From the NCBI GenBank assembly GCA_900547165.1, contig URFZ01000004.1, positions 47,104 through 111,103 of the forward strand: a stretch of 64,000 nt of DNA, written 5' to 3'. The notes beneath the pieces were generated by a model. That model saw only the letters and a list, made by a program, of their open reading frames with translations. It was not told the DNA's origin and ran no database searches. A program made the translations under genes and the position numbers. This document shows positions 5,722 to 51,196 of the stretch, piece by piece; within the stretch, counting starts at the first letter, position 1; each line of letters opens with the position of its first letter. Origin of the DNA: an uncultured Eubacteriales bacterium. GTDB lineage: Bacteria; Bacillota; Clostridia; Oscillospirales; UBA644.

Positions 5722-5844
5722 TTCGGCGAATTCATTTCGCCGAACTATTTTTTCCTGTGCAAACCAAACGCTTAAACCCCATACATATAAATAAAGTGAA
5801 GCGCGACCCTGCAAAAGCAGAGCCGCACTTCCAAGAGAAAGAAA
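5722..5844. repeat. Intergenic repeat module, copy 1 (small hairpin, conserved spacer, long hairpin)
   Basis: TTCGGCGAATTCATTTCGCCGAA ... CATACATATAAA ... hairpin ... CTTCCAAGAGAAAGAAA. A second copy starts 208 bp to the right. Confidence 0.6.
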
Positions 5845-5929
5845 CTCTCAAAACGCGCCGCCGTTTTGAGAACAGCCATGTGCGTGTTGCGCAGCGACAA
5901 TTTCGCACGGCGTATCGGATCGACCGGTC

Positions 5930-6048
5930 TTCGGCGAATTTATTTCGCCGAACTATTACTCCCTGCGCAAACTAAACACTTAAATACAATACATATAAAA
6001 TGAAGAGAGACTTCACCGAAGTGAAGCCCCTCTTCCAAGAGAAAGAAA
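5930..6048. repeat. Intergenic repeat module, copy 2
   Basis: Same layout as 5722-5844. The long hairpin has a different stem sequence but sits at the same position. On the minus strand it reads as a terminator-like stem with a UUCG loop followed by ATTTTAT, just after the htrA stop. Confidence 0.6.
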
Positions 6049-6124
6049 TATGAAAAAAACACGAGCAAGCAATTTAAGTTTTCCGACCGCGTGATTGCGA
6101 GCGCGGAGGAAAAGGGCTTATGCG

Positions 6125-7678
6125 TCAGCCGTTCTGCGACGGGACGTATTCGCCAAAGGTCAGGGAGACGGTCTTTTGTTCGCCGTTCCTGATTATGGTC
6201 ACGTCAATGGTGTCGCCTATCTTGTGAGCGTCAACAACGGAGTTATAGTCCGACATGGAACTGATAACCGTGCCGTCCATGCTGACAAGCAGGTCGCCGC
6301 TTCTGAATTGAGAAGTTGCGTCCGTGACTTTGTATACATATATACCGGTTCTCGAAACACGGTAACTTATCGCGGTTGCGCGGTCGGTGAGGTCGATGGG
6401 TTCAAAACCCGTCGAGATCCTGCCCGTAACGTAGCCGTATTGAATAATATCGTTTATAACAGTTTTTGCGGTGTTGACGGGAATTGCAAAGCCGAGGTTA
6501 TCTATATTCGAACCTGTCGATTTTGCATTGACTATGCCGATAAGGTTGCCGTTTGCGTCAAATGCGCCGCCGCCTGAGTTACCGGGGTTGACAGCCGCAT
6601 CTATCTGCAAAAGCGTCATGGTCTGATTTTCAATGGTTACCTGACGGTCAAGCGCGCTGACAATGCCCTTGGTGACGCTTCCGCCGAGAGAGCCGAGAGG
6701 GTTGCCGATAACGACAACGTCCTGTCCGACAACTATCTGCGAAGAGTCGCCGAATACCGCGGGGGTAAGTCCCGTAGCATTTATTTTGACAACTGCGATG
6801 TCGGTCTTTTCGTCCGTGCCGACAACCGTGGCGTCATAGGTCGTTTTGTTTGCGAGCGTGACTTTTATATTTGTTGCGCCGTCAACGACGTGATTGTTCG
6901 TGACTATATATCCGTCCGCGCTGACAACAACGCCGCTGCCTGCGCCCTGGGTAACATACTGACCGAAGAAAGTGGAGGTGGTGACGGTCTCCGTTGTTAT
7001 CTCGACAACGGAGTTTTCAACCGCCGCAACGACTTTTGCGGTGTCCGTGCTGCCCGCGACGGAGGAGGGGTCAACTTTGGGTTCGGTGCTTTCGTAAATG
7101 ACGGTGTTGCCGCCCGAAGATGTCTGCGAACCGCCCGCTGTGCCGTTTCTGCCGAAGAGCATATACGAACCGCCGATGCCGAGTCCCGTTGAAAGGATTA
7201 TTGCCGCGACAAGCAGCGCGCAAACGGCGCCGATGCCGAACTTCTTTTTCTCTTTCGGCTTTTTGGGAGGTCTCGGAGGCTGCTGCGGAGAGGAATATGA
7301 ATACGTTCCGTTCGGAGCAACTCTGCCGTAGCCGTATTCGCCGCCGTAATTATAATTGGTCTGCGGCTGACCGTTGCGATACGAGTATTCGTAGCGCGGG
7401 GGTTGTGCGGTGGTCTGTGCGGGCGCGCCGTAAGGCGGGTTCGGTCTGTGATACGGAGGCTGTCCCGCAGGAGCATGGGGTTCGGGTCTTGTGCCGACCT
7501 CGTAGCGTTCGCCCGTTTGCGGGTCGTAAGCATATCTCGGCTGCGGTCTGTCGGGCGTTTCGGCGGCGGGCGTTGTCTGCGCCGCGTCCGTCTGTGCCGT
7601 CTGCACATCGTCGGGTCTCGTTTCGTTCTCCGACGGCGTTTCATTTATATTGAGTTCGTTTTTTTCGAAATCGTCCAT
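6125..7678 (-). CDS. htrA: HtrA/DegP-like S1C serine protease with PDZ domain and a long Pro/Gln/Tyr-rich N-terminal region
   Basis: 517 aa. Has a TM segment (FGIGAVCALLVAAIILSTGLGIG), the catalytic-serine motif GNSGG, and a PDZ-like C-terminus. Confidence 0.85.
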   Translation of the reverse strand: MDDFEKNELNINETPSENETRPDDVQTAQTDAAQTTPAAETPDRPQPRYAYDPQTGERYEVGTRPEPHAPAGQPPYHRPNPPYGAPAQTTAQPPRYEYSYRNGQPQTNYNYGGEYGYGRVAPNGTYSYSSPQQPPRPPKKPKEKKKFGIGAVCALLVAAIILSTGLGIGGSYMLFGRNGTAGGSQTSSGGNTVIYESTEPKVDPSSVAGSTDTAKVVAAVENSVVEITTETVTTSTFFGQYVTQGAGSGVVVSADGYIVTNNHVVDGATNIKVTLANKTTYDATVVGTDEKTDIAVVKINATGLTPAVFGDSSQIVVGQDVVVIGNPLGSLGGSVTKGIVSALDRQVTIENQTMTLLQIDAAVNPGNSGGGAFDANGNLIGIVNAKSTGSNIDNLGFAIPVNTAKTVINDIIQYGYVTGRISTGFEPIDLTDRATAISYRVSRTGIYVYKVTDATSQFRSGDLLVSMDGTVISSMSDYNSVVDAHKIGDTIDVTIIRNGEQKTVSLTFGEYVPSQNG

Positions 7679-7858
7679 TTCAAAAAACCGTCCTTTCTTG
7701 TTTTTACAAGAGGATTATACCCCCCGAAAGTGACGGTTGTGTGAACGCTCGGTAAAAGTCAGCGGAAAATTAGGGAAAAATGCGGTTCACATCGGAAACG
7801 GGCAGGGACTGCCGTTTATATGAAAAAATGTTCGGACAGAGAAAAGCGAACCCAAAGG

Positions 7859-8476
7859 CTATTTTATTCTGAAAATAACGACCTTACCTGCATGAACGGT
7901 TATAGTCGCTTCCGTGTCGGGAAGCGTGGAATTGCTTGCCCAAAGCGGGACGTCGGCAAAGAACTCGGTCTTTTCGACGCTGTATTTCAGTCCGCGTTCG
8001 GTGACAAGCGCGGTTTCGGTCAGCGGAAAAACGGTGACGTTCACGCTTTTTTCTTCTGCGGGGAGCGTCAGAGTGCCGTTTTCGAGATAATCTATCCGCG
8101 CGCGGTCGGTTATGATATACCCTTTTGCGCCGCGGGAGTAAATATACCGCAATGTTGCGATATTGGCAAAAGTGTGGTCTTCCCTCGCGCCGCCGATACC
8201 GCCGACTATAACTATCTCGTCCGCGCCGCGGTCAAGTGCGTAACGGACGGCGTAATGCGTGTCCGTATCGTCCTTTTCAACGGGCAGAACGACCTTTTCG
8301 CCGTTGTAAAGTCTGCCGTTGGGGTATGAGTCAAAGTCTCCTATCACGACGGACGGGCGCACGCCGAAACGCTCGGCGGTCTTCAAACCGACGTCGGCGC
8401 ATATAACAAAATCGTCTTTTTTTATTTCAACGGGAAGGACGGTAAGTTCCGCCCATACAAATATGACCGCTCTCAT
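7859..8476 (-). CDS. thiN: Thiamine diphosphokinase
   Basis: Contains ..VVIGDFDS.. and a C-terminal thiamine-binding-like region. The start is taken at the ATG that overlaps the rsgA stop (ATGA coupling) rather than the track start at 8488. Confidence 0.8.
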   Translation of the reverse strand: MRAVIFVWAELTVLPVEIKKDDFVICADVGLKTAERFGVRPSVVIGDFDSYPNGRLYNGEKVVLPVEKDDTDTHYAVRYALDRGADEIVIVGGIGGAREDHTFANIATLRYIYSRGAKGYIITDRARIDYLENGTLTLPAEEKSVNVTVFPLTETALVTERGLKYSVEKTEFFADVPLWASNSTLPDTEATITVHAGKVVIFRIK

Positions 8477-42619: not shown

Positions 42620-42825
42620 TTATAACACATATTTTTAGAAAGTGCAATAGGAAAAAACAAAAAAATCTGAAATTTCTCGGCAAAAACGATATTTTCGGCG
42701 TATCCCGTCTGCCTACGATTGACAAAGCATAATGTTTTTGAAATAACGGTTAATAAAAAGAGACCTGTGAGGGTCGCTTTTGTCGGTTTCTTCTTCAAGT
42801 TTTTCTACAATAGAAATTGCACAAG

Positions 42826-44580
42826 TTATTTCATAATGTTAAGTTCACCGATTTTTTCTATAAATGATTTATTTATATAAGACGTAATCTCATCATCAGT
42901 TTCTTGCAGAGAGAGCCACTCACTTAAGTCGCAAAAATTCTTTTTAGTTACAGCCATATCTTCAGACGTAGAGAATTCTTGATTATTAAAACAAAGCCCC
43001 AGTAATAATTCTGCGATTTTTCTCTTTTTCGCGTTATTTGACTGCGCATAACTCTTCTTAAAGGTTTTCAACATTTCTGAATCAAAGCTTTCAAAACACA
43101 TTTTCGATATTGCAATTTTTTCATTATATAATCCATTGTCTAAATATGCTATAAATCTTTTTTTCTGTTTATTCATAATTACCCGATTTTCAAACCTCAT
43201 TGCTGTATTGTATAATTCTTTCCATTCGGGAGCAATGTTTTCTATCTCTACAACGCTATATCTTTCAGATTCTTCCGTTTTTTCAGTTATAACCCTCAAA
43301 AAACGTTCATTAAGACCTTTTACCATTTTCGAAGGATCCACTTCACATGGGAAAGGAATCTTTACACTTTGCAGCATTTGAACTTTTGTCAAGAACGAAA
43401 TGATTTGTTCACAAGACAAGTCTCCTGAATATGCCTTTTCTACGACTTCCGAAAAACCCTTATCTATATCTTGTTTATCTAAATCCCAAAAGTTCTTCCA
43501 CAAAAACAGTTCCCATGGCTGTATCTCTGAATCCCCGTATTTTCGTGTCAATTCAGAAATAAAAGCATCTTCGTTCCAATATCCAGTATTAATCCATTCA
43601 CTTAGTGAATCAAATGAACTGTACGCTTCTCCCTTATTAAGAAATCTTTTATTTGAATTAAAAATAGGTGCCAACACCTCTTCATCAGAAATATCAACTT
43701 GTTTATCCTCTTTAGAACTCGCTTCAAACCTCTCGGCGCCAAAAGTATATAAAACCCATTTCATATTCTCTGTCGAAACAGACGTCCCTTGCCAATAGCC
43801 GAAAACCCTTTCAAAATCTGCTAAAATATATTTTAAAATACGAATATTCTGAGAACTGCTCTCTCCGAACAATTGTCTTACAAGAACAATGTTCTGACGC
43901 AAAAAATCCTTATAGCCCAACTCTGTTTCATTATATCCGTCAACAACAGTATCGACAACAGCATTTTTATCAAGTTCAATTTTTATGGTTCTTGAAATAA
44001 CTTTTTCCTTATAATCATTATAGCATTTTTCTGTGTTGATTTTATTCTCGTCAGCCACCATAATCGTTTTTATATTTTTGTTTTCAACATAATCGTTTAT
44101 TGCGCCCAACAAATCTTGTGCATCAATTTTACACCGTTCAAAATCATCAAATGCAAGAGCAAATCTCATATCATTTTTCACAGTATTACTCACTTTTAAT
44201 AAGTCAGAAAAATCTATTGATTCTAATACTGATGTAACCCCACTGACAACCGCCGAGACGACAGGATTACTTATCGTGCACGCAGTCGTATCAATTAATT
44301 TCTTTGTACCTTCTTTCATTGGTTTCGCAGCTTTTTTAATTTTTTTCGCATGTGGCATTTGGAGCGCGAAATATGCGGATTGGACTCTTTGGTTTAAGGT
44401 TTTAACCTCTGTAATTCCAAACAAAGATATTACTGCAACGGCAATTTTTTTTTCACTAAACTCTTTTGCAATTTCTTTAATCAAATAGGATTTACCGCAC
44501 CCCCACTCTCCCGTAAGTAAAAGTGCTCCCGTTGCTTCTTTGCAGTTAAGATAGCTTTCAATTTCTTTTCTGATATCCAT
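42826..44580 (-). CDS. KAP-family P-loop NTPase
   Basis: 584 aa. Walker A LLLTGEWGCGKSY, Walker B-like FALAFDDFERC. The gene is strongly AT-rich compared with its flanks. Confidence 0.75.
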   Translation of the reverse strand: MDIRKEIESYLNCKEATGALLLTGEWGCGKSYLIKEIAKEFSEKKIAVAVISLFGITEVKTLNQRVQSAYFALQMPHAKKIKKAAKPMKEGTKKLIDTTACTISNPVVSAVVSGVTSVLESIDFSDLLKVSNTVKNDMRFALAFDDFERCKIDAQDLLGAINDYVENKNIKTIMVADENKINTEKCYNDYKEKVISRTIKIELDKNAVVDTVVDGYNETELGYKDFLRQNIVLVRQLFGESSSQNIRILKYILADFERVFGYWQGTSVSTENMKWVLYTFGAERFEASSKEDKQVDISDEEVLAPIFNSNKRFLNKGEAYSSFDSLSEWINTGYWNEDAFISELTRKYGDSEIQPWELFLWKNFWDLDKQDIDKGFSEVVEKAYSGDLSCEQIISFLTKVQMLQSVKIPFPCEVDPSKMVKGLNERFLRVITEKTEESERYSVVEIENIAPEWKELYNTAMRFENRVIMNKQKKRFIAYLDNGLYNEKIAISKMCFESFDSEMLKTFKKSYAQSNNAKKRKIAELLLGLCFNNQEFSTSEDMAVTKKNFCDLSEWLSLQETDDEITSYINKSFIEKIGELNIMK

Positions 44581-44708
44581 AAAACATCCTTTCTAATACT
44601 GATATAAATGCAATCAAATATATCTTTTAAATTACTATAACCGACATATAGTAAAACAATAACACACGAGATATAATAACACATTTACAACAAAAAGTAA
44701 AGACGTTC

Positions 44709-44752
44709 TTAACAAAATGAGCGGTATGGAACGCATGTTTCATACCGCTCAT
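44709..44752 (-). terminator. Hairpin terminator/attenuator between the methyltransferase gene and the KAP NTPase gene
   Basis: 12-bp stem ATGAGCGGTATG (44717-44728) / CATACCGCTCAT (44741-44752), followed on the minus strand by TTTTGTT. It starts 4 nt after the stop codon at 44757. Confidence 0.45.
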
Positions 44753-44756
44753 CATT

Positions 44757-47027
44757 TTACTTCAAAAATTCATATTCAAACAACGTAGGGACAATTTCGC
44801 TGTTATAATACTCTTTCACTTTTTGTTTTAAAGACTTTAAAGCCCCATTAAGCTCAGGATAATCCGGTTTGTTTTCTCCTGATTCTTCATCTGCGGTAAA
44901 AGTGTTGAGTTCTGCAAAAATCTGATATACACCATAAGTCAATTCTTTATTGTAGTTATTAGTTTTCTTTGCCCACTTAAACACTGTTTCCCATATGCTG
45001 AACAGTTCTTTTTCTTTTAACGTGACATTAAGTTTTTTTAAATCATGGCTTGCCAAAGTTTCTCCGTTTGTTGTGTCAAGGCACAATTCATTCCGGTAAA
45101 ACCGATTATCCGTACCGTGAAAACTTCTCATATGGTTTTGCATTTCAAAACAAGTAAAAACAAGACACTTTAATAAGAACTGACTCAATTTCCCGCTTTT
45201 TACGTCGGCAAAGAATTTATCTGCCCCATCTGCCGATTTCATAATTCTTGCGCGTTCCGTCCATTCTCTGTTATATGTAATATACCTGCTTGCACAGAAC
45301 ATCGGTAACTTTTCAAGATAATTATCTTTGCGAACATAAAACCCATTCCCGTCATATCTTCCAGCAACCGTAAATCCTGAATTTAAGTCCGGATTATCAA
45401 ACCCTGCAGAATTTGCAACTAAAAATCCGATGATATTATCGTCCCATACTTTTTTTACTCTCGCGCTTTCTTTGCTATATTCTGTTCCGTTCAGATTACA
45501 ACAAATCCCGTCTGTCTTATCATTATTATAAGAGGTTTTATCATAGTATTTATCAGCCAAAGTATAATAACATTTTTTAATAGTTAATTTTTCAGGCATC
45601 TCAACCAATTCTCCGCCGACTATATCAAAACCAACCGTATTAAACTTTTCGATATTTTCAGATATGTTTTGCCACGCAACAACTACAATACAAGCATCTA
45701 TCTTTGTATGAAAGTGCTTTCTGTTAAACGCGTAACTTCCGATTATTTTTTTGTTTATTAGATGATGTATTTTCCAATACTTGATCGGCGAATACACTAT
45801 ATAACAATCAGTTTCTTGTCTTAAATAGTATTTAAACCCCGACCAAATAAAAGCATTTCCTAAATCATTTGTACCTGATCCCTTAATCTCTTTCTTCATC
45901 TCTTTTACAACATAGCTGTTTTTCCAACCACTGTTTATTTTTGTTGTACCGTTTGATTCTGCATAAGGCGGATTTTCGAATAAAATTATTGTACAATTGG
46001 GGTCATCGATGTAACTTTTTATAACAGGGTTCTTTACATATTCTTCAGATAACGCGTCAGCGCCTCTGACAAGCCCCATATTAAACGTATCTTCTTTTTC
46101 AATCGGCGGAACAATATATCGAACTTTACTGCCTAACAATTCCAGCAATACTTTGTATTCATAGTATTCAATGGTCGATACAATACAATGGGAAAGTTCT
46201 TCTTCGGTCATTGTTTTTTCAAGGTTACCGGTTCCGGCACAGCGATCCAAGATTATATAATCGTTTCCTTCGGGTACCCTTTTAATAGCTTCCCTTACCA
46301 ATTCAAGAGATTTTTTTACATAGGGCTCCGGTGTATAGAAAGCACCTAAATTCTTTTTTTGAAGCGTGTCGTTCAATTTATCCATTAGATACTGAAAACG
46401 CACATTGTCTTTTCCTTTATAAGGGAAAATATAGTCTCTAAATTTAATAGGTTCTCTGATTTCACCGATAATCTTGACTTTACCGGTGTTATCGCCGATA
46501 AAATCTGATTTTCGAGCCTGTGGGTTTTCGCGGTAATACTTTTCTGCCCAACCCACAATACAGTTTTCATCAATATTAATCTTTGTATAGGATTTCTCTT
46601 TAAGCAACTGAATTAAAGAAAACTCATCCTTCTCGTCTTCGATATATTTTAGTTTTGAGATATAATCGGAAGCGAAAAATCCAACATTCTTTTTTGATGC
46701 ACCGCCGACATAAACCTTTTCAATGTGAGCCAAATAATCTTTTGAATGATATACATAAACAGTACCCGTATTTAAAGAAACCAAAAGAATATTAGCAGGA
46801 ATCGGCTCCCCCTTAACTCTCATAGCAGAAAGATATTTTATCGTTTGCAACAAACAAGCATTGAGATCTGTTATATTCAATTTAAATTCAAGCAAATTCC
46901 CGTTTAAAATACCATCTGTGTTATTACGAAAAATATCATCAAATGTCAATTCAGGATTAACGATTTTTAAATATTGCTCGTAAAATTCAATTTGACCTTC
47001 AAGTTCAACACTGTATTTTTTCAACAT
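44757..47027 (-). CDS. Single-polypeptide restriction-modification-like enzyme: N-terminal PD-(D/E)xK-like motif fused to a gamma-class N6-adenine DNA methyltransferase (Type IIG/IIL-like)
   Basis: MTase motifs GAFYTPEPYV (X), ILDRCAGTGNL (I) and FENPPYAE (IV). N-terminal TDGILNGNLLEFK is D-x8-E-x-K. The start is taken at ATG 47027, which has AGGAGG 7 nt upstream; the track start at 47048 is a GTG. Confidence 0.7.
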   Translation of the reverse strand: MLKKYSVELEGQIEFYEQYLKIVNPELTFDDIFRNNTDGILNGNLLEFKLNITDLNACLLQTIKYLSAMRVKGEPIPANILLVSLNTGTVYVYHSKDYLAHIEKVYVGGASKKNVGFFASDYISKLKYIEDEKDEFSLIQLLKEKSYTKINIDENCIVGWAEKYYRENPQARKSDFIGDNTGKVKIIGEIREPIKFRDYIFPYKGKDNVRFQYLMDKLNDTLQKKNLGAFYTPEPYVKKSLELVREAIKRVPEGNDYIILDRCAGTGNLEKTMTEEELSHCIVSTIEYYEYKVLLELLGSKVRYIVPPIEKEDTFNMGLVRGADALSEEYVKNPVIKSYIDDPNCTIILFENPPYAESNGTTKINSGWKNSYVVKEMKKEIKGSGTNDLGNAFIWSGFKYYLRQETDCYIVYSPIKYWKIHHLINKKIIGSYAFNRKHFHTKIDACIVVVAWQNISENIEKFNTVGFDIVGGELVEMPEKLTIKKCYYTLADKYYDKTSYNNDKTDGICCNLNGTEYSKESARVKKVWDDNIIGFLVANSAGFDNPDLNSGFTVAGRYDGNGFYVRKDNYLEKLPMFCASRYITYNREWTERARIMKSADGADKFFADVKSGKLSQFLLKCLVFTCFEMQNHMRSFHGTDNRFYRNELCLDTTNGETLASHDLKKLNVTLKEKELFSIWETVFKWAKKTNNYNKELTYGVYQIFAELNTFTADEESGENKPDYPELNGALKSLKQKVKEYYNSEIVPTLFEYEFLK

Positions 47028-47085
47028 AAACATACCTCCTGGATTCACTGCTTATAAACTTCTTTACCTCTCACTTTTGCAATGC

Positions 47086-47114
47086 ACAACATAATCGACA
47101 TTATGTTGCAAACA
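47086..47114 (+). repeat. Left inverted repeat of the invertible switch (ACAACATAATCGACATTATGTTGCAAACA)
   Basis: Exact 29-bp reverse complement of 47383-47411. Internally it has ACATAAT / ATTATGT arms around an asymmetric CGAC. Confidence 0.9.
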
Positions 47115-47183
47115 GGCAAAGCGGCGGCGATATATCGGGCTTTGTTGACGGCATAAGCGGAGTAAAAAGAGAATAGAAACGGC

Positions 47184-47209
47184 ATAAAAAAAGCCGCCCG
47201 AGGGCGGCA
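47184..47209 (-). terminator. Rho-independent terminator inside the invertible segment, active on the minus strand in this orientation
   Basis: GCCGCCC-GAG-GGGCGGC (47193-47209), followed on the minus strand by TTTTTTT (plus-strand A-run 47186-47192). Confidence 0.6.
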
Positions 47210-47314
47210 GATAAAAATGCGTATAAGAAAATAAGCCTTTTCCGAAACATCTAAACGAGAGAGGCTTTATTCGTATGTTTTATTTTTTCGAAAACTCAAA
47301 ACTCTTTTATGTAC

Positions 47315-47343
47315 TTGACAAATTGTCACGGATATGTTACAAT
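47315..47343 (+). promoter_or_regulatory. Near-consensus promoter inside the invertible segment, currently facing away from the methyltransferase gene
   Basis: TTGACA (47315-47320), a 17-nt spacer, then TACAAT (47338-47343). Confidence 0.65.
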
Positions 47344-47382
47344 AAAACAAATAAAAATGTTATGTTATAAACAAATTAATTT

Positions 47383-47411
47383 TGTTTGCAACATAATGTC
47401 GATTATGTTGT
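47383..47411 (-). repeat. Right inverted repeat of the invertible switch
   Basis: TGTTTGCAACATAATGTCGATTATGTTGT is the exact reverse complement of 47086-47114. Confidence 0.9.
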
Positions 47412-47447
47412 ATACGTCGCCGAGTGGCGGCGTTTTTTGTTTTTGGG

Positions 47448-48290
47448 CTACAATACTAAATGCATATTTTCCATGCGGCGGCGGTGTTCTTCACCTGTGG
47501 AAATGATATATATGCGGGTGGTGTTGATACTGCTGTGTCCGAGAATATCCGCGAGCTTTGCAATATCCTTTTCAATGCAGTAAAACACTCGGGCGAACAG
47601 GTGGCGCAGATTATGCGGAAAAACTTTTTGCGGGTTGACATTTGCTTCGGCGCATAATGCTTTCATTTCGCGCCAAACGGTCGTTCTGTCCAACGGTTTT
47701 CCTGAACGGGTGATGAAAATCATTCCCGATTTTATTTTTTGCTCTGCTGCGTAGCGGAGCAATTTTTGTTTTAGTTCTTTCACAATAAATACCGACCGTG
47801 TCTTTGCTTTGCAGTTTACAACAGCCTCGCCTTGCTTTACAGCCTCAACGGTTATAAATTGCAGTTCGCTGACGCGGATACCTGTGCCGCAAATTGTTTG
47901 CAAAATTAAGCAAAGGCGTTTGTTGCATTTTTTAGCGGCGGTACGGCAAAGACGTTCGTATTCTGCTCTTGTAAGTTCTTTTTCTTCGGGGCAGAATATT
48001 CTGCGTTGAAGTTTGAGCGATTTTACTTTTAGTTCCGGGTGTTCGACAAATTCAAAAAATGCGTTCAAACCGGCAAGCATGGAATTTACACTGCGAACAG
48101 CATAATGACCGTTAAGAAAATTCTTGTATGACACGACGGTTTCTTTTGTGACAAGTTGTCCTTTTGTATAACGGGCAAATACGGAAACATCACGAACATA
48201 TTTTTCAATGGTAGCTGTACTGCGTTCGCAATAAGTCAGATGTCGGCGAAAGCGCGAAATATTATCCGATTTTATTATAAGTTCTTTCAT
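47448..48290 (-). CDS. Tyrosine site-specific recombinase (XerC/D-phage integrase family)
   Basis: Start moved to the ATG at 48290 (MKELIIKSDNISRFRRHL...). Catalytic-region motifs HNLRHLFA and LGHSSINTTRIY. Confidence 0.85.
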   Translation of the reverse strand: MKELIIKSDNISRFRRHLTYCERSTATIEKYVRDVSVFARYTKGQLVTKETVVSYKNFLNGHYAVRSVNSMLAGLNAFFEFVEHPELKVKSLKLQRRIFCPEEKELTRAEYERLCRTAAKKCNKRLCLILQTICGTGIRVSELQFITVEAVKQGEAVVNCKAKTRSVFIVKELKQKLLRYAAEQKIKSGMIFITRSGKPLDRTTVWREMKALCAEANVNPQKVFPHNLRHLFARVFYCIEKDIAKLADILGHSSINTTRIYIISTGEEHRRRMENMHLVL

Positions 48291-48420
48291 CTTTTGATAC
48301 CTCCGCAGATATTCTACCCTAAAAATCAAAAAAGAACAAACAAAAATGCTAACGGTGCATAAAATGGAATGTGAGGAAGAGAGTTTGCGCATTCGCGCGA
48401 ACTGCCGCACGGCGTAAAGG

Positions 48421-48665
48421 CGAAAAAAAGACAGCGTCTGTTTCGGAATATCCCCTGCTCGAATCTCAAACACTTTCCGCACTTTGCAGACATGACCAAA
48501 ACAATATCAATTTATTTGATTATGTTTTGTTTGACAGATACCCAAATAATCTTCCGCGAAACCGCCCGAGGCGGCGGCGAGGGTGAGTTGAGCGGCGGCG
48601 AGCAAGCGGAGCGCAGGCGCAGCGGCGAGACGGAATGAGCTGAAACAAGTGTGTTCGAGAGAGAA
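48421..48665 (+). repeat. Dispersed noncoding repeat of about 245 bp, copy B
   Basis: Collinear with 22254-22500, with its core at 48578-48632. Lies between the recombinase gene and dpaA. Confidence 0.7.
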
Positions 48666-49719: not shown

Positions 49720-50313
49720 GTGAAAGATATGGAAATGAAAGATGCTCGTGCGCGGATAGGCTACGCTCTCTGCGGGTCGTTCTGCACACTCAAAAAAATG
49801 ATAGACCAAATGGAAACGCTCGCTTTGGCGGGCTATGACATCGTGCCGATAATGTCGGCAAATACTTATTCGACCGATACACGTTTCGGAACTGCGGAAA
49901 GTTTCCGCGAAAGGGTCGAGAACATCTGCGGCAGACCCGTTCTGCACACGCTTGCGGAGGTTGAGCCGTTCGGCCCGAAAAAGTTGCTTGACCTGCTTAT
50001 TGTCGCGCCTTGCACGGGAAACACCCTCGCAAAAATAGCCAACGGGGTCTCGGACAGCGTAGTGTCACTGGCTGTAAAAGCACACTTGCGCAACGAACGC
50101 CCCGTTTTGATAGCCGTGTCGAGCAACGACGCATTGTCGGGCAATGCGAAAAATCTCGGAGTTTTAATGAACACGCGGCACATCTATTTCGTACCTTTCG
50201 GACAGGACGATGCGATAAAAAAGCCTACATCTCTCGTTGCGAAAACAGAAATGATTCCCGAAGCGGTCGAAGCGACATTAAAAGGCGAACAGATTCAGCC
50301 TTTGCTGATGTAA
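49720..50313 (+). CDS. dpaB: Dipicolinate synthase subunit B (flavoprotein)
   Basis: RIGYALCGSFCT.. and ..LIVAPCTGNTLAKIANG.. are typical of SpoVFB. The exact start among several in-frame Met codons is uncertain. Confidence 0.8.
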   Translation: MKDMEMKDARARIGYALCGSFCTLKKMIDQMETLALAGYDIVPIMSANTYSTDTRFGTAESFRERVENICGRPVLHTLAEVEPFGPKKLLDLLIVAPCTGNTLAKIANGVSDSVVSLAVKAHLRNERPVLIAVSSNDALSGNAKNLGVLMNTRHIYFVPFGQDDAIKKPTSLVAKTEMIPEAVEATLKGEQIQPLLM

Positions 50314-50884
50314 AAAAACTGTCGGCGGCATCGTGCCGCCGATTTTTACATAACTGTTTTTTCAACGAACACCCGCGGGAGTGATTGAATACGCCGCGCG
50401 AAATTTTTGCTTTTAAATACGAAAATGTCTGTTTACTTGTATCGCAAAGGCGTTTATCAGCTCGTTTTTGTCGGAATTTGCAAACAATTTGTAAACTTTT
50501 GTCTTTTTCTGTCACGAAATCCATTTTTCGACCGTATTAATTGGTAAAAGGAGGTAAAATCGAAATTTGCCGAGGTCGAGATGTGCATGGTTTGCGCAAG
50601 CAAACCTGTGCGGGCACATGGCAGATCAATCCAAACGGCAAGAAGAACATGGGCAAGGCGTCCCGTGTTCGAACCGAAAACATATAAAGAAGAAATTACA
50701 TCTATACTTCTTCTTTTTCTTCCGTTTCTTTGTTTATATGTTTTCAAAACGAAAACGCAAAAAGAGATACTCCTTCCTTTTCTTTTTATTTAGCATTACA
50801 TCCTCTTAATGCGTTTTTGTCCAAGAAAAAGTAAAAAGAAGACAACTCCTTTTCTTCTCTTTTAATTCTTCTTTTTACGCTTTT

Positions 50885-50964
50885 CCCTCCCGAATTTAAA
50901 GTTGCAGCGGCTTGGAAGTAGTAAAAACTTGCCCCACCTGTGCTTTTTCGGGAGGCTTTTTTTG
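50885..50964 (+). terminator. Long hairpin with a T-tract inside the gene-poor region
   Basis: CCTCCCGAA (50886-50894) pairs with TTCGGGAGG (50947-50955), with extra inner pairing, then CTTTTTTTTG. Confidence 0.4.
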
Positions 50965-51196
50965 TCATAAGGCAACAATGCAAAGCAAATAACAGGCATT
51001 TGCACGGTTTTCAAAGACTTCGGAGAGACGAAACGAGGCTTCGGCAGAGAGGCCGAACGTTGCCGTATCGTCTGCGCGGGTTCGCCGAGATTTGACGTCT
51101 GATGTTGTGGGTGCGAAAGGTCGAGGTTGATGTATCGTCTGCTTCTGCGCCCGTTCCGACGTTTTTATGTTTCCGCAAATAATGCCGAACGACAAA

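Follow-up and report, generated by a model that had tools for sequence, protein, structure and literature searches.

An AT-rich, strain-variable island with an invertible promoter switch and a candidate compact restriction-modification gene in an uncultured Eubacteriales bacterium

We analysed a stretch of 64,000 nucleotides (hereafter the window) from an uncultured Eubacteriales bacterium of the human gut (class Clostridia; GenBank assembly GCA_900547165.1, contig URFZ01000004.1, forward-strand positions 47,104 to 111,103). An AT-rich island in this window carries three genes: a gene for a KAP-family P-loop NTPase (KAP), a gene for a large protein of 756 or 758 residues (the large ORF, open reading frame) and a gene for a tyrosine recombinase that adjoins a short invertible DNA segment (inverton). 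We think it probable, at roughly 0.6, that the island is a defence islet gained by horizontal transfer, in which a phase-variable, compact Type IIG-like restriction-modification (R-M) enzyme of an undescribed family is accompanied by an independent KAP defence gene. The locus combines known kinds of elements, namely single-chain R-M enzymes and promoter invertons, and is not a categorically new system. Coordinates are those of the window unless preceded by the number of another locus (L001 and so on).

A promoter inversion switch

The inverton measures 326 bp including two perfect 29-nt inverted repeats, with 268 nt between the repeats. Its parts and the adjoining recombinase gene are as follows.

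47086-47114: gene-proximal inverted repeat, perfect 29-nt, with the full recombinase-type core CAACATAAT-CGAC-ATTATGTTG
47115-47382: invertible segment, 268 bp, in OFF orientation here
47383-47411: recombinase-proximal inverted repeat, reverse complement of 47086-47114
47315-47343, plus strand: predicted sigma-70-type promoter in the segment, TTGACA-17-TACAAT with TG, 11 of 12 consensus positions
47193-47208, minus strand: terminator hairpin in the segment, GCCGCCCTCGGGCGGC followed by T7 (terminator scan)
47414-47433, plus strand: terminator-like hairpin outside the distal repeat, 8-bp stem with six GC pairs and a T-run (terminator scan)
47448-48290, minus strand: XerC/D-like tyrosine recombinase, candidate invertase, 280 residues; Pfam Phage_integrase, E = 3.6e-24

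Each repeat holds a palindromic 9-4-9 core, CAACATAAT-N4-ATTATGTTG, which has two matches in the 64-kb window versus 0.00 expected by chance. The same core, with one change in the spacer, flanks the orthologous invertons of five other loci (L001-L003, L014 and L198). As judged by its consensus match, the segment promoter in the window faces away from the large ORF. By our arithmetic, inversion would bring it to ~47182-47154 on the minus strand, ~115 nt upstream of the large-ORF ATG. In the OFF state, transcription that reads through from the recombinase gene would end at the terminator at 47208-47193 before reaching the large ORF, and the hairpin at 47414-47433 would halt transcripts of the OFF-state promoter that run antisense into the recombinase gene. 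The locus is a small, clean inversion switch, with a promoter one way, a terminator the other and a recombinase adjoining.

The distal repeat is 37 nt away from the end of the recombinase gene. The start of this gene is the methionine of MKELII at 48290, in agreement with gene callers on other assemblies, which also give 280 residues. Besides the catalytic domain, Pfam detects SAM-like N-terminal domains; residues of catalytic type are R139, H226-x-x-R229-H230 and the stretch GHSSINTTRIY. Among NCBIfam models XerA, XerD and XerC score below their cutoffs, and models of tyrosine-type DNA invertases match weakly.

An orthologous module has a recombinase 72% identical (L001, L002 and L014) and an ORF product 76% identical to those of the window. 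Relative to L001/L003, the segment is flipped in L002/L014: reverse alignments score 344-350, forward alignments 28. L001, L002 and L003 encode an identical ORF product (P0046) despite the differing orientation of the switch. In L001 and L003 (ON) a TTGTAA-17-TATAAT sequence with TG, read by eye, faces the ORF; the regular-expression scan flagged no promoter there. The corresponding promoter sequence in L002, L014 and L198, also read by eye, faces away, as in the window. Inversion thus occurs naturally in the orthologous module, which independent assemblies carry in both orientations, and the adjoining recombinase is presumably the enzyme that performs the flip. The initial annotation of the window, made from its letters alone, had proposed a tyrosine recombinase beside an inverton; the repeats are confirmed, a promoter is predicted between them, and the orthologous inverton is found flipped in nature.

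Part of a recombinase site also occurs elsewhere in the island. A half-copy with its flank (TTTTGTTTTCAACATAATCG) lies at 44073-44095, inside the KAP gene, and matches 47377-47397 at 19 of 21 positions. We rejected it as a third recombination site: the second arm is absent, so that the half-site would be non-functional or a chance occurrence.

The large ORF and its family

The gene that the switch would control and the domains of its product are listed below.

44757-47033, minus strand: large ORF, 758 residues from the first ATG, 756 residues from the second ATG at 47027
46524-47033, minus strand: N-terminal nuclease-like domain, ~residues 1-170, with a PD-(D/E)XK or RecB-Cas4-like motif set
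45654-46361, minus strand: gamma-class N6-adenine DNA methyltransferase core, ~residues 225-460
45354-45713, minus strand: hypervariable cassette-like segment, candidate target-recognition module, ~residues 441-560

A ribosome-binding site, AGGAGG, precedes the ATG. The presence of an N6-adenine methyltransferase in the 756-residue protein, suggested in the initial annotation, was upheld by motifs as well as by structure comparison. The motifs GAFYTP, DRCAGTG and NPPY, read from the translation as LGAFYTP, ILDRCAGTGN and FENPPYAE, stand in the gamma-class order X-I-IV. In an alignment of 33 diverse family members D263, C265, A266, N354, P355 and P356 show no variation; for G267-T268-G269 and Y357 conservation is 90% or more. 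A Foldseek search with the AlphaFold2 model of the protein (mean predicted local distance difference test score, pLDDT, 77.9) returned DNA adenine methyltransferases, namely CamA, HsdM, BsaXI, BrxX and PacII, with E-values of 1e-6 to 1e-5 and probability 1.00.

The N-terminal domain has a mixed helix-strand fold according to prediction (pLDDT 79 in a separate model). Its motif, D40-x8-E49-x-K51 plus Q63-x3-Y67, resembles that of RecB/Cas4-type PD-(D/E)XK nucleases. All five residues, D40, E49, K51, Q63 and Y67, are invariant across the 33 members, down to 27% identity, which argues for a maintained catalytic site. The protein would be expected to have nuclease activity, a specificity for DNA sequence and a restriction phenotype.

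One same-species allele is broken close to this motif. In L098 (6925-7260, corresponding to window ~46860-46863) a 4-bp deletion at ~codon 58, just past the D-ExK motif, splits the ORF into pieces of 61 and 697 residues, a natural knockout of the nuclease-like end.

The family is undescribed. It comprises more than 3600 homologs of 755-765 residues, unnamed or called 'hypothetical' wherever a name is given; an exhaustive HMMER scan yielded 602 clusters at 50% identity. The window protein has no match in Pfam, NCBIfam, PHROGs or PDB sequences when searched as a single protein; the PDB search was also negative with the family profile. In a Pfam scan of the 33 relatives three weakly matched N6_Mtase (best E = 8.9e-4), and a scan of 10 architectural variants gave nothing useful. 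The one family member found in BFVD comes from a virome contig and is annotated as 'N-6 DNA Methylase'.

A collection with one genome per species yielded 270 hits. The 80 loci kept for examination encode proteins 54-79% identical to the window protein and span Clostridia, Streptococcus, Bacteroidales, Prevotella, Treponema, Veillonella, Haemophilus, Actinomycetaceae, Collinsella and Melainabacteria. No record of the phage collection carries the gene. In the plasmid collection it is present on four Limosilactobacillus plasmids only; on the 9-kb mobilizable plasmids of Limosilactobacillus reuteri the homolog is the sole large cargo gene. If the protein is a compact single-chain R-M enzyme, current annotation of defence genes and methylomes of gut and oral bacteria would overlook a common activity of DNA modification and restriction.

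The plasmid member is more distant. In L. reuteri plasmid p53608_2 (L093, LN906636.1, 9.1 kb) an 821-residue protein encoded at 5807-8272 is 41% identical to the window protein; the remaining genes are Rep, CopG, MobA and two small hypothetical ORFs, and similar contigs of ~9 kb occur in many samples.

A cassette-like variable segment

Sequence entropy of the family is at its maximum at residues 461-540, a region without indels. The same region differs between two alleles within the species. L197 represents the same locus of the same species, with recombinase and KAP 99.3% and 98.1% identical to those of the window. Identity of its allele of the large ORF (L197:7001-9301) to the window allele is distributed as follows.

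Residues 1-360: 98-100% identity, except 88% at 121-160
Residues 361-440: 65-75% identity
Residues 441-560: 32-52% identity
Residues 561-758: 85-98% identity

The BLASTN alignment of L197 with the window breaks over 45436-45687. At the sequence level, the two alleles differ by an exchanged cassette, the recognition-like segment. Replacement of an internal segment in an otherwise near-identical protein is like the evolution of specificity domains of R-M systems. This pattern is the strongest, though indirect, support for the proposal that the protein recognizes DNA sequence-specifically under diversifying selection. If the protein is an R-M enzyme, two natural alleles that differ only in ~100-200 residues would also make a ready-made system for mapping determinants of specificity.

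An AT-rich island present in a subset of strains

The island lies between a tetR gene and a dpaA gene, both confirmed by Pfam, at 42782-48553 (AT-rich strain-variable island, 5772 bp, with borders from comparison with empty sites). Its content is the three genes KAP, large ORF and recombinase, all on the minus strand; a shared orientation had been noted in the initial annotation. There the region at ~42.8-47.4 kb had also been called AT-rich by eye, and computation bears this out. GC content is 0.354 over the island and 0.499 over the remaining window. A 500-nt profile shows values of 0.31-0.37 at ~42.5-47.5 kb, between flanks of ~0.50, with recovery through the recombinase gene; the individual genes have 0.336 (KAP), 0.340 (large ORF) and 0.423 (recombinase). 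Windows of the same size elsewhere (n = 235) have a minimum of 0.451 and a mean of 0.503 with a standard deviation of 0.024, which puts the island ~6 standard deviations below.

Assemblies covering the same locus were gathered by means of the exact DpaA protein in public assemblies. In three of them (L095, L101 and L103, with identical DpaA) tetR directly adjoins dpaA; these are empty sites in the same species. BLASTN alignment with L095 gave breakpoints at 42781/42782 and 48553/48554, with 5772 bp in place of 146 bp of the empty site. Only two states, the empty site and the same three-gene island, were seen among ~21 same-species contigs, and the site is therefore no hotspot with diverse cargo in this species. 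A search for att sites at the island borders found no flanking direct repeat of at least 9 nt and no inverted repeat. Horizontal acquisition of the island is supported.

Scanning with Rfam gave no match within the island. A 67-residue ORF at 44481-44684 was discarded as spurious; it overlaps the start of KAP and has no matches in the Pfam, PADLOC and NCBIfam libraries.

The KAP gene and its association with the large ORF

The KAP gene and two elements that separate it from the large ORF have the following positions.

42826-44580, minus strand: KAP-family P-loop NTPase, 584 residues; Pfam KAP_NTPase (PF07693), E = 6.8e-15
44673-44701, minus strand: weak promoter-like site upstream of KAP, TTTACT-17-TATTAT with TG before the -10 element, 9 of 12 consensus positions (scan only)
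44709-44753, minus strand: intrinsic-terminator-like hairpin with U-run, right after the large-ORF stop codon

The family assignment, made already in the initial annotation, holds with a Pfam score of 55.5 bits against a cutoff of 20. The Walker A motif GEWGCGKS begins at residue 24 and the Walker B motif ALAFDD at residue 141. Three PADLOC PDC-S49 models match with E = 3.1e-50, 4.7e-41 and 2.9e-38; the alignments cover KAP residues 3-385 at most, about the N-terminal half of each 620-residue profile. PDC-S49 is a single-gene 'phage defence candidate' of PADLOC, a computational candidate, and a literature search found no paper mentioning it. The protein also matches phrog_4740 (E = 4.5e-52), and its nearest homologs outside this species are ~41% identical. 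A function of KAP in defence is presumed.

According to the initial annotation, no named defence system covers this gene set. This still stands: the PADLOC hidden Markov models (HMMs), searched without PADLOC system rules and cutoffs, recognize KAP alone. None of the signature proteins of BREX (PglZ, BrxC), DISARM (DrmA, DrmB), RADAR (RdrB) and Qat (QatB, QatC, QatD) was matched among the three island genes.

A further suggestion, that KAP and the nuclease-methyltransferase gene form one system under control of the recombinase switch, finds no support as far as a conserved pair is concerned. There is no KAP homolog within 8 kb of the large ORF in any of the 80 other-species loci (BLASTP at 1e-5; KAP HMM at 1e-2). 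Conversely, the family HMM detects no large-ORF homolog beside KAP in any of 75 metagenome KAP loci. In L198, the closest relative from another species (85% identity), recombinase, inverton and ORF are followed by a LysR gene, and KAP is missing. The clade of 76% identity (L001/L002), a sister module, lacks KAP as well; where KAP would lie it carries VbhA-Fic and other cargo. The pair was found in this species only, where every gain or loss affects both genes. The window, L197, L198, L001, L002 and L014 all combine recombinase, inverton and ORF, and the conserved unit is recombinase-inverton-large gene.

In the 176 nt between the large ORF and KAP a hairpin, a promoter-like site and the ribosome-binding site of KAP follow one another. 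The hairpin has a folding energy of -23.1 kcal/mol on the mRNA strand (z = -5.4 versus shuffled sequences) and is followed by UUUUGUU; the inverted-repeat search and the terminator scan both picked it up as well. With a terminator hairpin and a promoter-like site between the genes, KAP is probably outside the control of the switch and probably constitutes a separate transcription unit.

KAP relatives in restriction loci

The closest KAP relatives (37-41% identity) lie between hsdS and hsdR of Type I R-M operons, with start/stop overlaps of 4-11 nt. The order hsdM-hsdS-KAP-hsdR was seen in the following loci.

L104:3301-11157, L105, L106, L112:3242-11156, L113, L117, L118, L120, L122, L141, L143, L150, L155

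Nine of the 75 metagenome KAP loci have flanking hsd genes. Counted by Pfam family over the 120 deduplicated same-strand neighbours of KAP, domains of Type I R-M systems rank first. In L138 (419-7800) KAP follows genes for an Eco57I-type methylase and a T5orf172/ResIII helicase-nuclease (Pfam). The pattern of neighbours of 508, 1007 and 297 residues before KAP is shared by L138, L144 and L169, in the latter two by ORF size only. In L158 (290-6905), a BREX-like locus, KAP comes after a PglZ gene. Other relatives lie beside Qat, AbiE or nSTAND genes or on mobilizable elements; ~80% of the KAP loci have no R-M neighbour. A literature search turned up no description of KAP genes within hsd operons. 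The pairing of KAP with a Type IIG-like gene is not conserved; the recurrent embedding of the KAP clade in restriction operons is worth a proper test.

Proposed mechanism and alternative explanations

We propose that the tyrosine recombinase would invert the 268-bp segment between two inverted core sites. In the OFF state the segment promoter would point away from the large gene, with its transcripts running into a terminator, and the second terminator would block read-through from the recombinase gene; in the ON state the inverted promoter would drive the 756/758-residue gene. The product would unite in one chain an N-terminal nuclease of PD-(D/E)XK type, a gamma-class S-adenosylmethionine-dependent N6-adenine methyltransferase and a C-terminal recognition region, whose core of ~100 residues could be exchanged between alleles with a change of specificity. 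When ON, the enzyme would methylate the host genome at its motif and cleave incoming DNA that lacks this methylation. Phase variation would limit cost and self-damage, and would yield methylated and unmethylated subpopulations. KAP, as a PDC-S49 candidate with its own promoter-like site past the terminator, would be a separate defence-island gene co-travelling in this species.

Several observations weigh against this explanation. By sequence, the large ORF matches none of the curated R-M families; the best hit is a non-significant PADLOC match to MTase_II (E = 0.031). With ~756 residues the protein is 100-250 residues shorter than characterised Type IIG enzymes, which have roughly 880-1100 residues. 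Foldseek searches of its N-terminal domain against PDB and BFVD gave no significant neighbour except the virome family member (best PDB E = 0.41); the weak lists do include PD-(D/E)XK nucleases, such as cap-snatching endonucleases, PrfA/RecU, Dna2 and RecB or Cas4-like phage proteins. Identification of the domain as a PD-(D/E)XK nuclease, drawn from the invariant motif and weak fold matches, is suggestive. Of the nuclease-methyltransferase fusion initially annotated, the methyltransferase thus stands, and the nuclease has the invariant motif in its favour but no significant nuclease fold match. Whereas the recognition domains of Type I and many Type IIG enzymes are large and cannot be aligned, the variable segment is short and shows no indels in the family. 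All same-species assemblies examined (L007-L012, seven island-bearing loci of L094-L102, some of them on the same contigs, and L197) share the OFF orientation of the window, with no flipped one seen, where consensus assemblies report the majority state only. Finally, the KAP clade is found repeatedly inside restriction operons, and a looser functional link between KAP and restriction stays open.

The last point leads to an unlikely alternative, a two-layer system in which KAP would be an accessory of the restriction-like enzyme, for example a latent, PrrC-like effector or guard that fires when the enzyme is inhibited. The position of the closest relatives between hsdS and hsdR with overlapping codons, the nine hsd-flanked loci of 75, the prevalence of Type I domains among neighbours and the associations with an Eco57I-type methylase plus helicase-nuclease or with PglZ all speak for such a role, as does the joint gain and loss of KAP and the large ORF in this species. 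The partner of KAP is, however, interchangeable, and ~80% of the KAP loci lack an R-M neighbour; the large ORF and KAP do not co-occur in either set of loci (0 of 80 and 0 of 75). Moreover, translational coupling in the hsd operons is replaced here by 176 nt with a strong hairpin and a promoter-like site, and since no defence genes are commoner than R-M systems, chance alone would place some of them next to KAP. Taken further by analogy, the KAP clade might be a dedicated companion of restriction based on N6-adenine methyltransferases (Type I, Eco57I-type, BREX and Type IIG-like), acting as a PrrC-like guard or second-line effector that senses when the restriction enzyme fails or is inhibited, which would make the island a two-layer, phase-gated immune unit around a hitherto unrecognised family of compact single-chain restriction enzymes; we consider this generalization quite doubtful. 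The view contained in the initial annotation that two independent defence genes landed together fits better, given that the genes do not co-occur, with the qualification that the KAP clade recurs in restriction operons.

It is rather unlikely that the large protein serves chiefly to reprogram host gene expression, as a DNA adenine methyltransferase that can be turned on and off (a phasevarion), with the N-terminal domain inactive or having another role. The invariance of D40, E49, K51, Q63 and Y67 throughout the family runs counter to this, and so does the horizontal spread of the gene over many phyla, on small plasmids and beside serine-recombinase elements, which is typical of selfish or defensive R-M systems. 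On the other hand, the best structural match, CamA, is a solitary methyltransferase, variation of the recognition segment between alleles is typical of phasevarions too, and turning on restriction in an unmethylated cell would be risky; in gut bacteria, methyltransferases that switch ON and OFF are a known source of epigenetic heterogeneity (PMC11741434, PMC7672463). The protein could also fill both roles. Very improbable is the reading of the tyrosine recombinase as an integrase for insertion and excision of the island, with the inverted repeats as remnants or unrelated. Its gene does lie at the edge of a strain-variable insertion and its product matches phage integrase PHROGs. Yet the island has no flanking direct repeats or att-like duplications, the 64 kb contain just two full core sites, inverted, 268 nt apart and around a promoter, the orthologous segment was found inverted rather than excised, and the recombinase is a small XerC/D-type protein of 280 residues with no arm-binding domain. 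We rejected this reading because the att-site search at the borders was empty.

Comparison with known systems

Given our preferred reading, an islet with a Type IIG-like enzyme and an independent KAP gene, the closest relatives in design are the Type IIG/IIL enzymes such as MmeI, Eco57I and BpuSI. They share with the large-ORF protein a single chain in which an N-terminal motif of PD-(D/E)XK type and a gamma N6-adenine methyltransferase with NPPY are followed by a recognition region at the C-terminus, a candidate one in the case of the large ORF; the motif of MmeI is D-x9-ExK, versus D-x8-ExK in the large ORF. Common to both, too, are a solitary gene with no separate methylase and a specificity that is apparently altered by exchange of a small segment. 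Unlike these enzymes, the large-ORF protein has no detectable homology to the Pfam Eco57I and N6_Mtase models or to PADLOC R-M models, and its core is structurally nearest to CamA and HsdM, with MmeI and BpuSI absent from the 50 Foldseek matches listed. Phase-variable Type IIG enzymes are known, for instance Cj0031 of Campylobacter jejuni; the large ORF is switched by promoter inversion, not by a homopolymer tract.

CamA of Clostridioides difficile (PDB 7LNI and 7LT5) is the top Foldseek match (E = 1.2e-6, probability 1.00), with alignments across the methyltransferase and C-terminal regions, and, like the window protein, comes from Clostridia. CamA chains have ~540-575 residues, whereas the large-ORF protein is extended at its N-terminus by ~215 residues, which include the nuclease-type motif; the two share 11-14% identity. 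The CamA gene is chromosomal and is not known to be phase-variable.

The switch resembles known promoter invertons, such as fimS with FimB/FimE in E. coli and the gut invertons found by PhaseFinder, in having a short repeat-bounded segment with an internal promoter and an adjacent tyrosine recombinase; moreover, both orientations exist in nature for the orthologue of the window module. It differs from them in that each repeat holds the full 9-4-9 core and the segment carries a terminator acting in the OFF state. Invertons are associated with R-M genes in gut bacteria (PMC11741434), and 'epigenetic invertons' of Type I hsdS genes have been described (PMC7672463, PMC11741434). Unlike the latter, which shuffle recognition domains, the window inverton would flip a promoter ON or OFF in front of a gene in which restriction, modification and specificity are fused.

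KAP is similar to PDC-S49, QatA and RdrA in matching PDC-S49 and Pfam KAP_NTPase and in belonging to a clade found in defence islands; the partners QatB, QatC and QatD of Qat and the RdrB deaminase of RADAR are absent from the island. A likeness to PrrC and RloC of Type I hsd loci lies in the translationally coupled position of KAP relatives between hsdS and hsdR and in the P-loop NTPase fold class common to both. The prrC gene lies within the Type Ic hsd locus of E. coli, in the slot between hsdS and hsdR. In contrast to PrrC and RloC, no anticodon-nuclease domain was detected in KAP by Pfam, PADLOC and NCBIfam scans; in the window KAP adjoins no Type I system and is not coupled to its neighbour, and the likeness is one of position only.

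Regulatory devices and neighbours in the large-ORF family

Clustering of neighbours within 5 kb in 84 loci revealed no gene family present in more than nine of them. Recurrent neighbours were divergent small XRE-type helix-turn-helix (HTH) genes (nine loci), large serine recombinases of mobile elements (nine) and tyrosine recombinases (eight). The XRE-family HTH genes code for 70-100 residues, are situated immediately upstream of the ORF homolog in ~9 loci and resemble controller (C) proteins of R-M systems. Positions of some of them are given here.

L013:7573-7869, L025:129-428, L026:2915-3136, L027:7569-7859, L042:7700-7912

Upstream of the ORF homolog in ten Clostridia loci there is a conserved structured leader of ~215 nt.

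L005:7737-7943, L017:7728-7945, L018:7721-7936, L019:248-460, L020:7731-7946
L021:7744-7948, L022:7742-7948, L023:515-723, L059:4871-5074, L024:1-56 (partial)

The leader contains a promoter, a long-range stem of 14 bp in which compensatory changes are seen, and further stems inside it. Its AAAATGC loop is invariant, and a strong terminator stands shortly ahead of the ORF, ~50 nt before the ribosome-binding site. Covariation is seen in 15 of 40 predicted pairs. Rfam gave nothing at gathering score. The covariance model of the leader matches those loci only, and the window has no copy. The leader is a candidate for a new cis-regulatory RNA or riboswitch-like element. Inverted repeats of 16-18 nt, 112-122 nt apart, in three of these loci (L005:7739-7892, L022:7747-7890, L059:4870-5021) were considered as invertons and rejected; they are really the two arms of the long-range stem. 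The RNA structure is preferred because all ten copies are collinear. The three loci have no recombinase.

Three gating devices, the inverton, the XRE regulator and the leader, occupy the same position before the gene, which fits a product that would be harmful if freely expressed. XRE-type controller proteins and phase variation are classic for R-M genes, as the title of PMC3874152 also indicates.

Other variable sites near the island

A second dip in GC content (0.38-0.41) is located at ~50200-51000, ~1 kb past dpaA. The region downstream of dpaA and flavoprotein genes is another variable spot, with gene content differing by strain among L094-L103.

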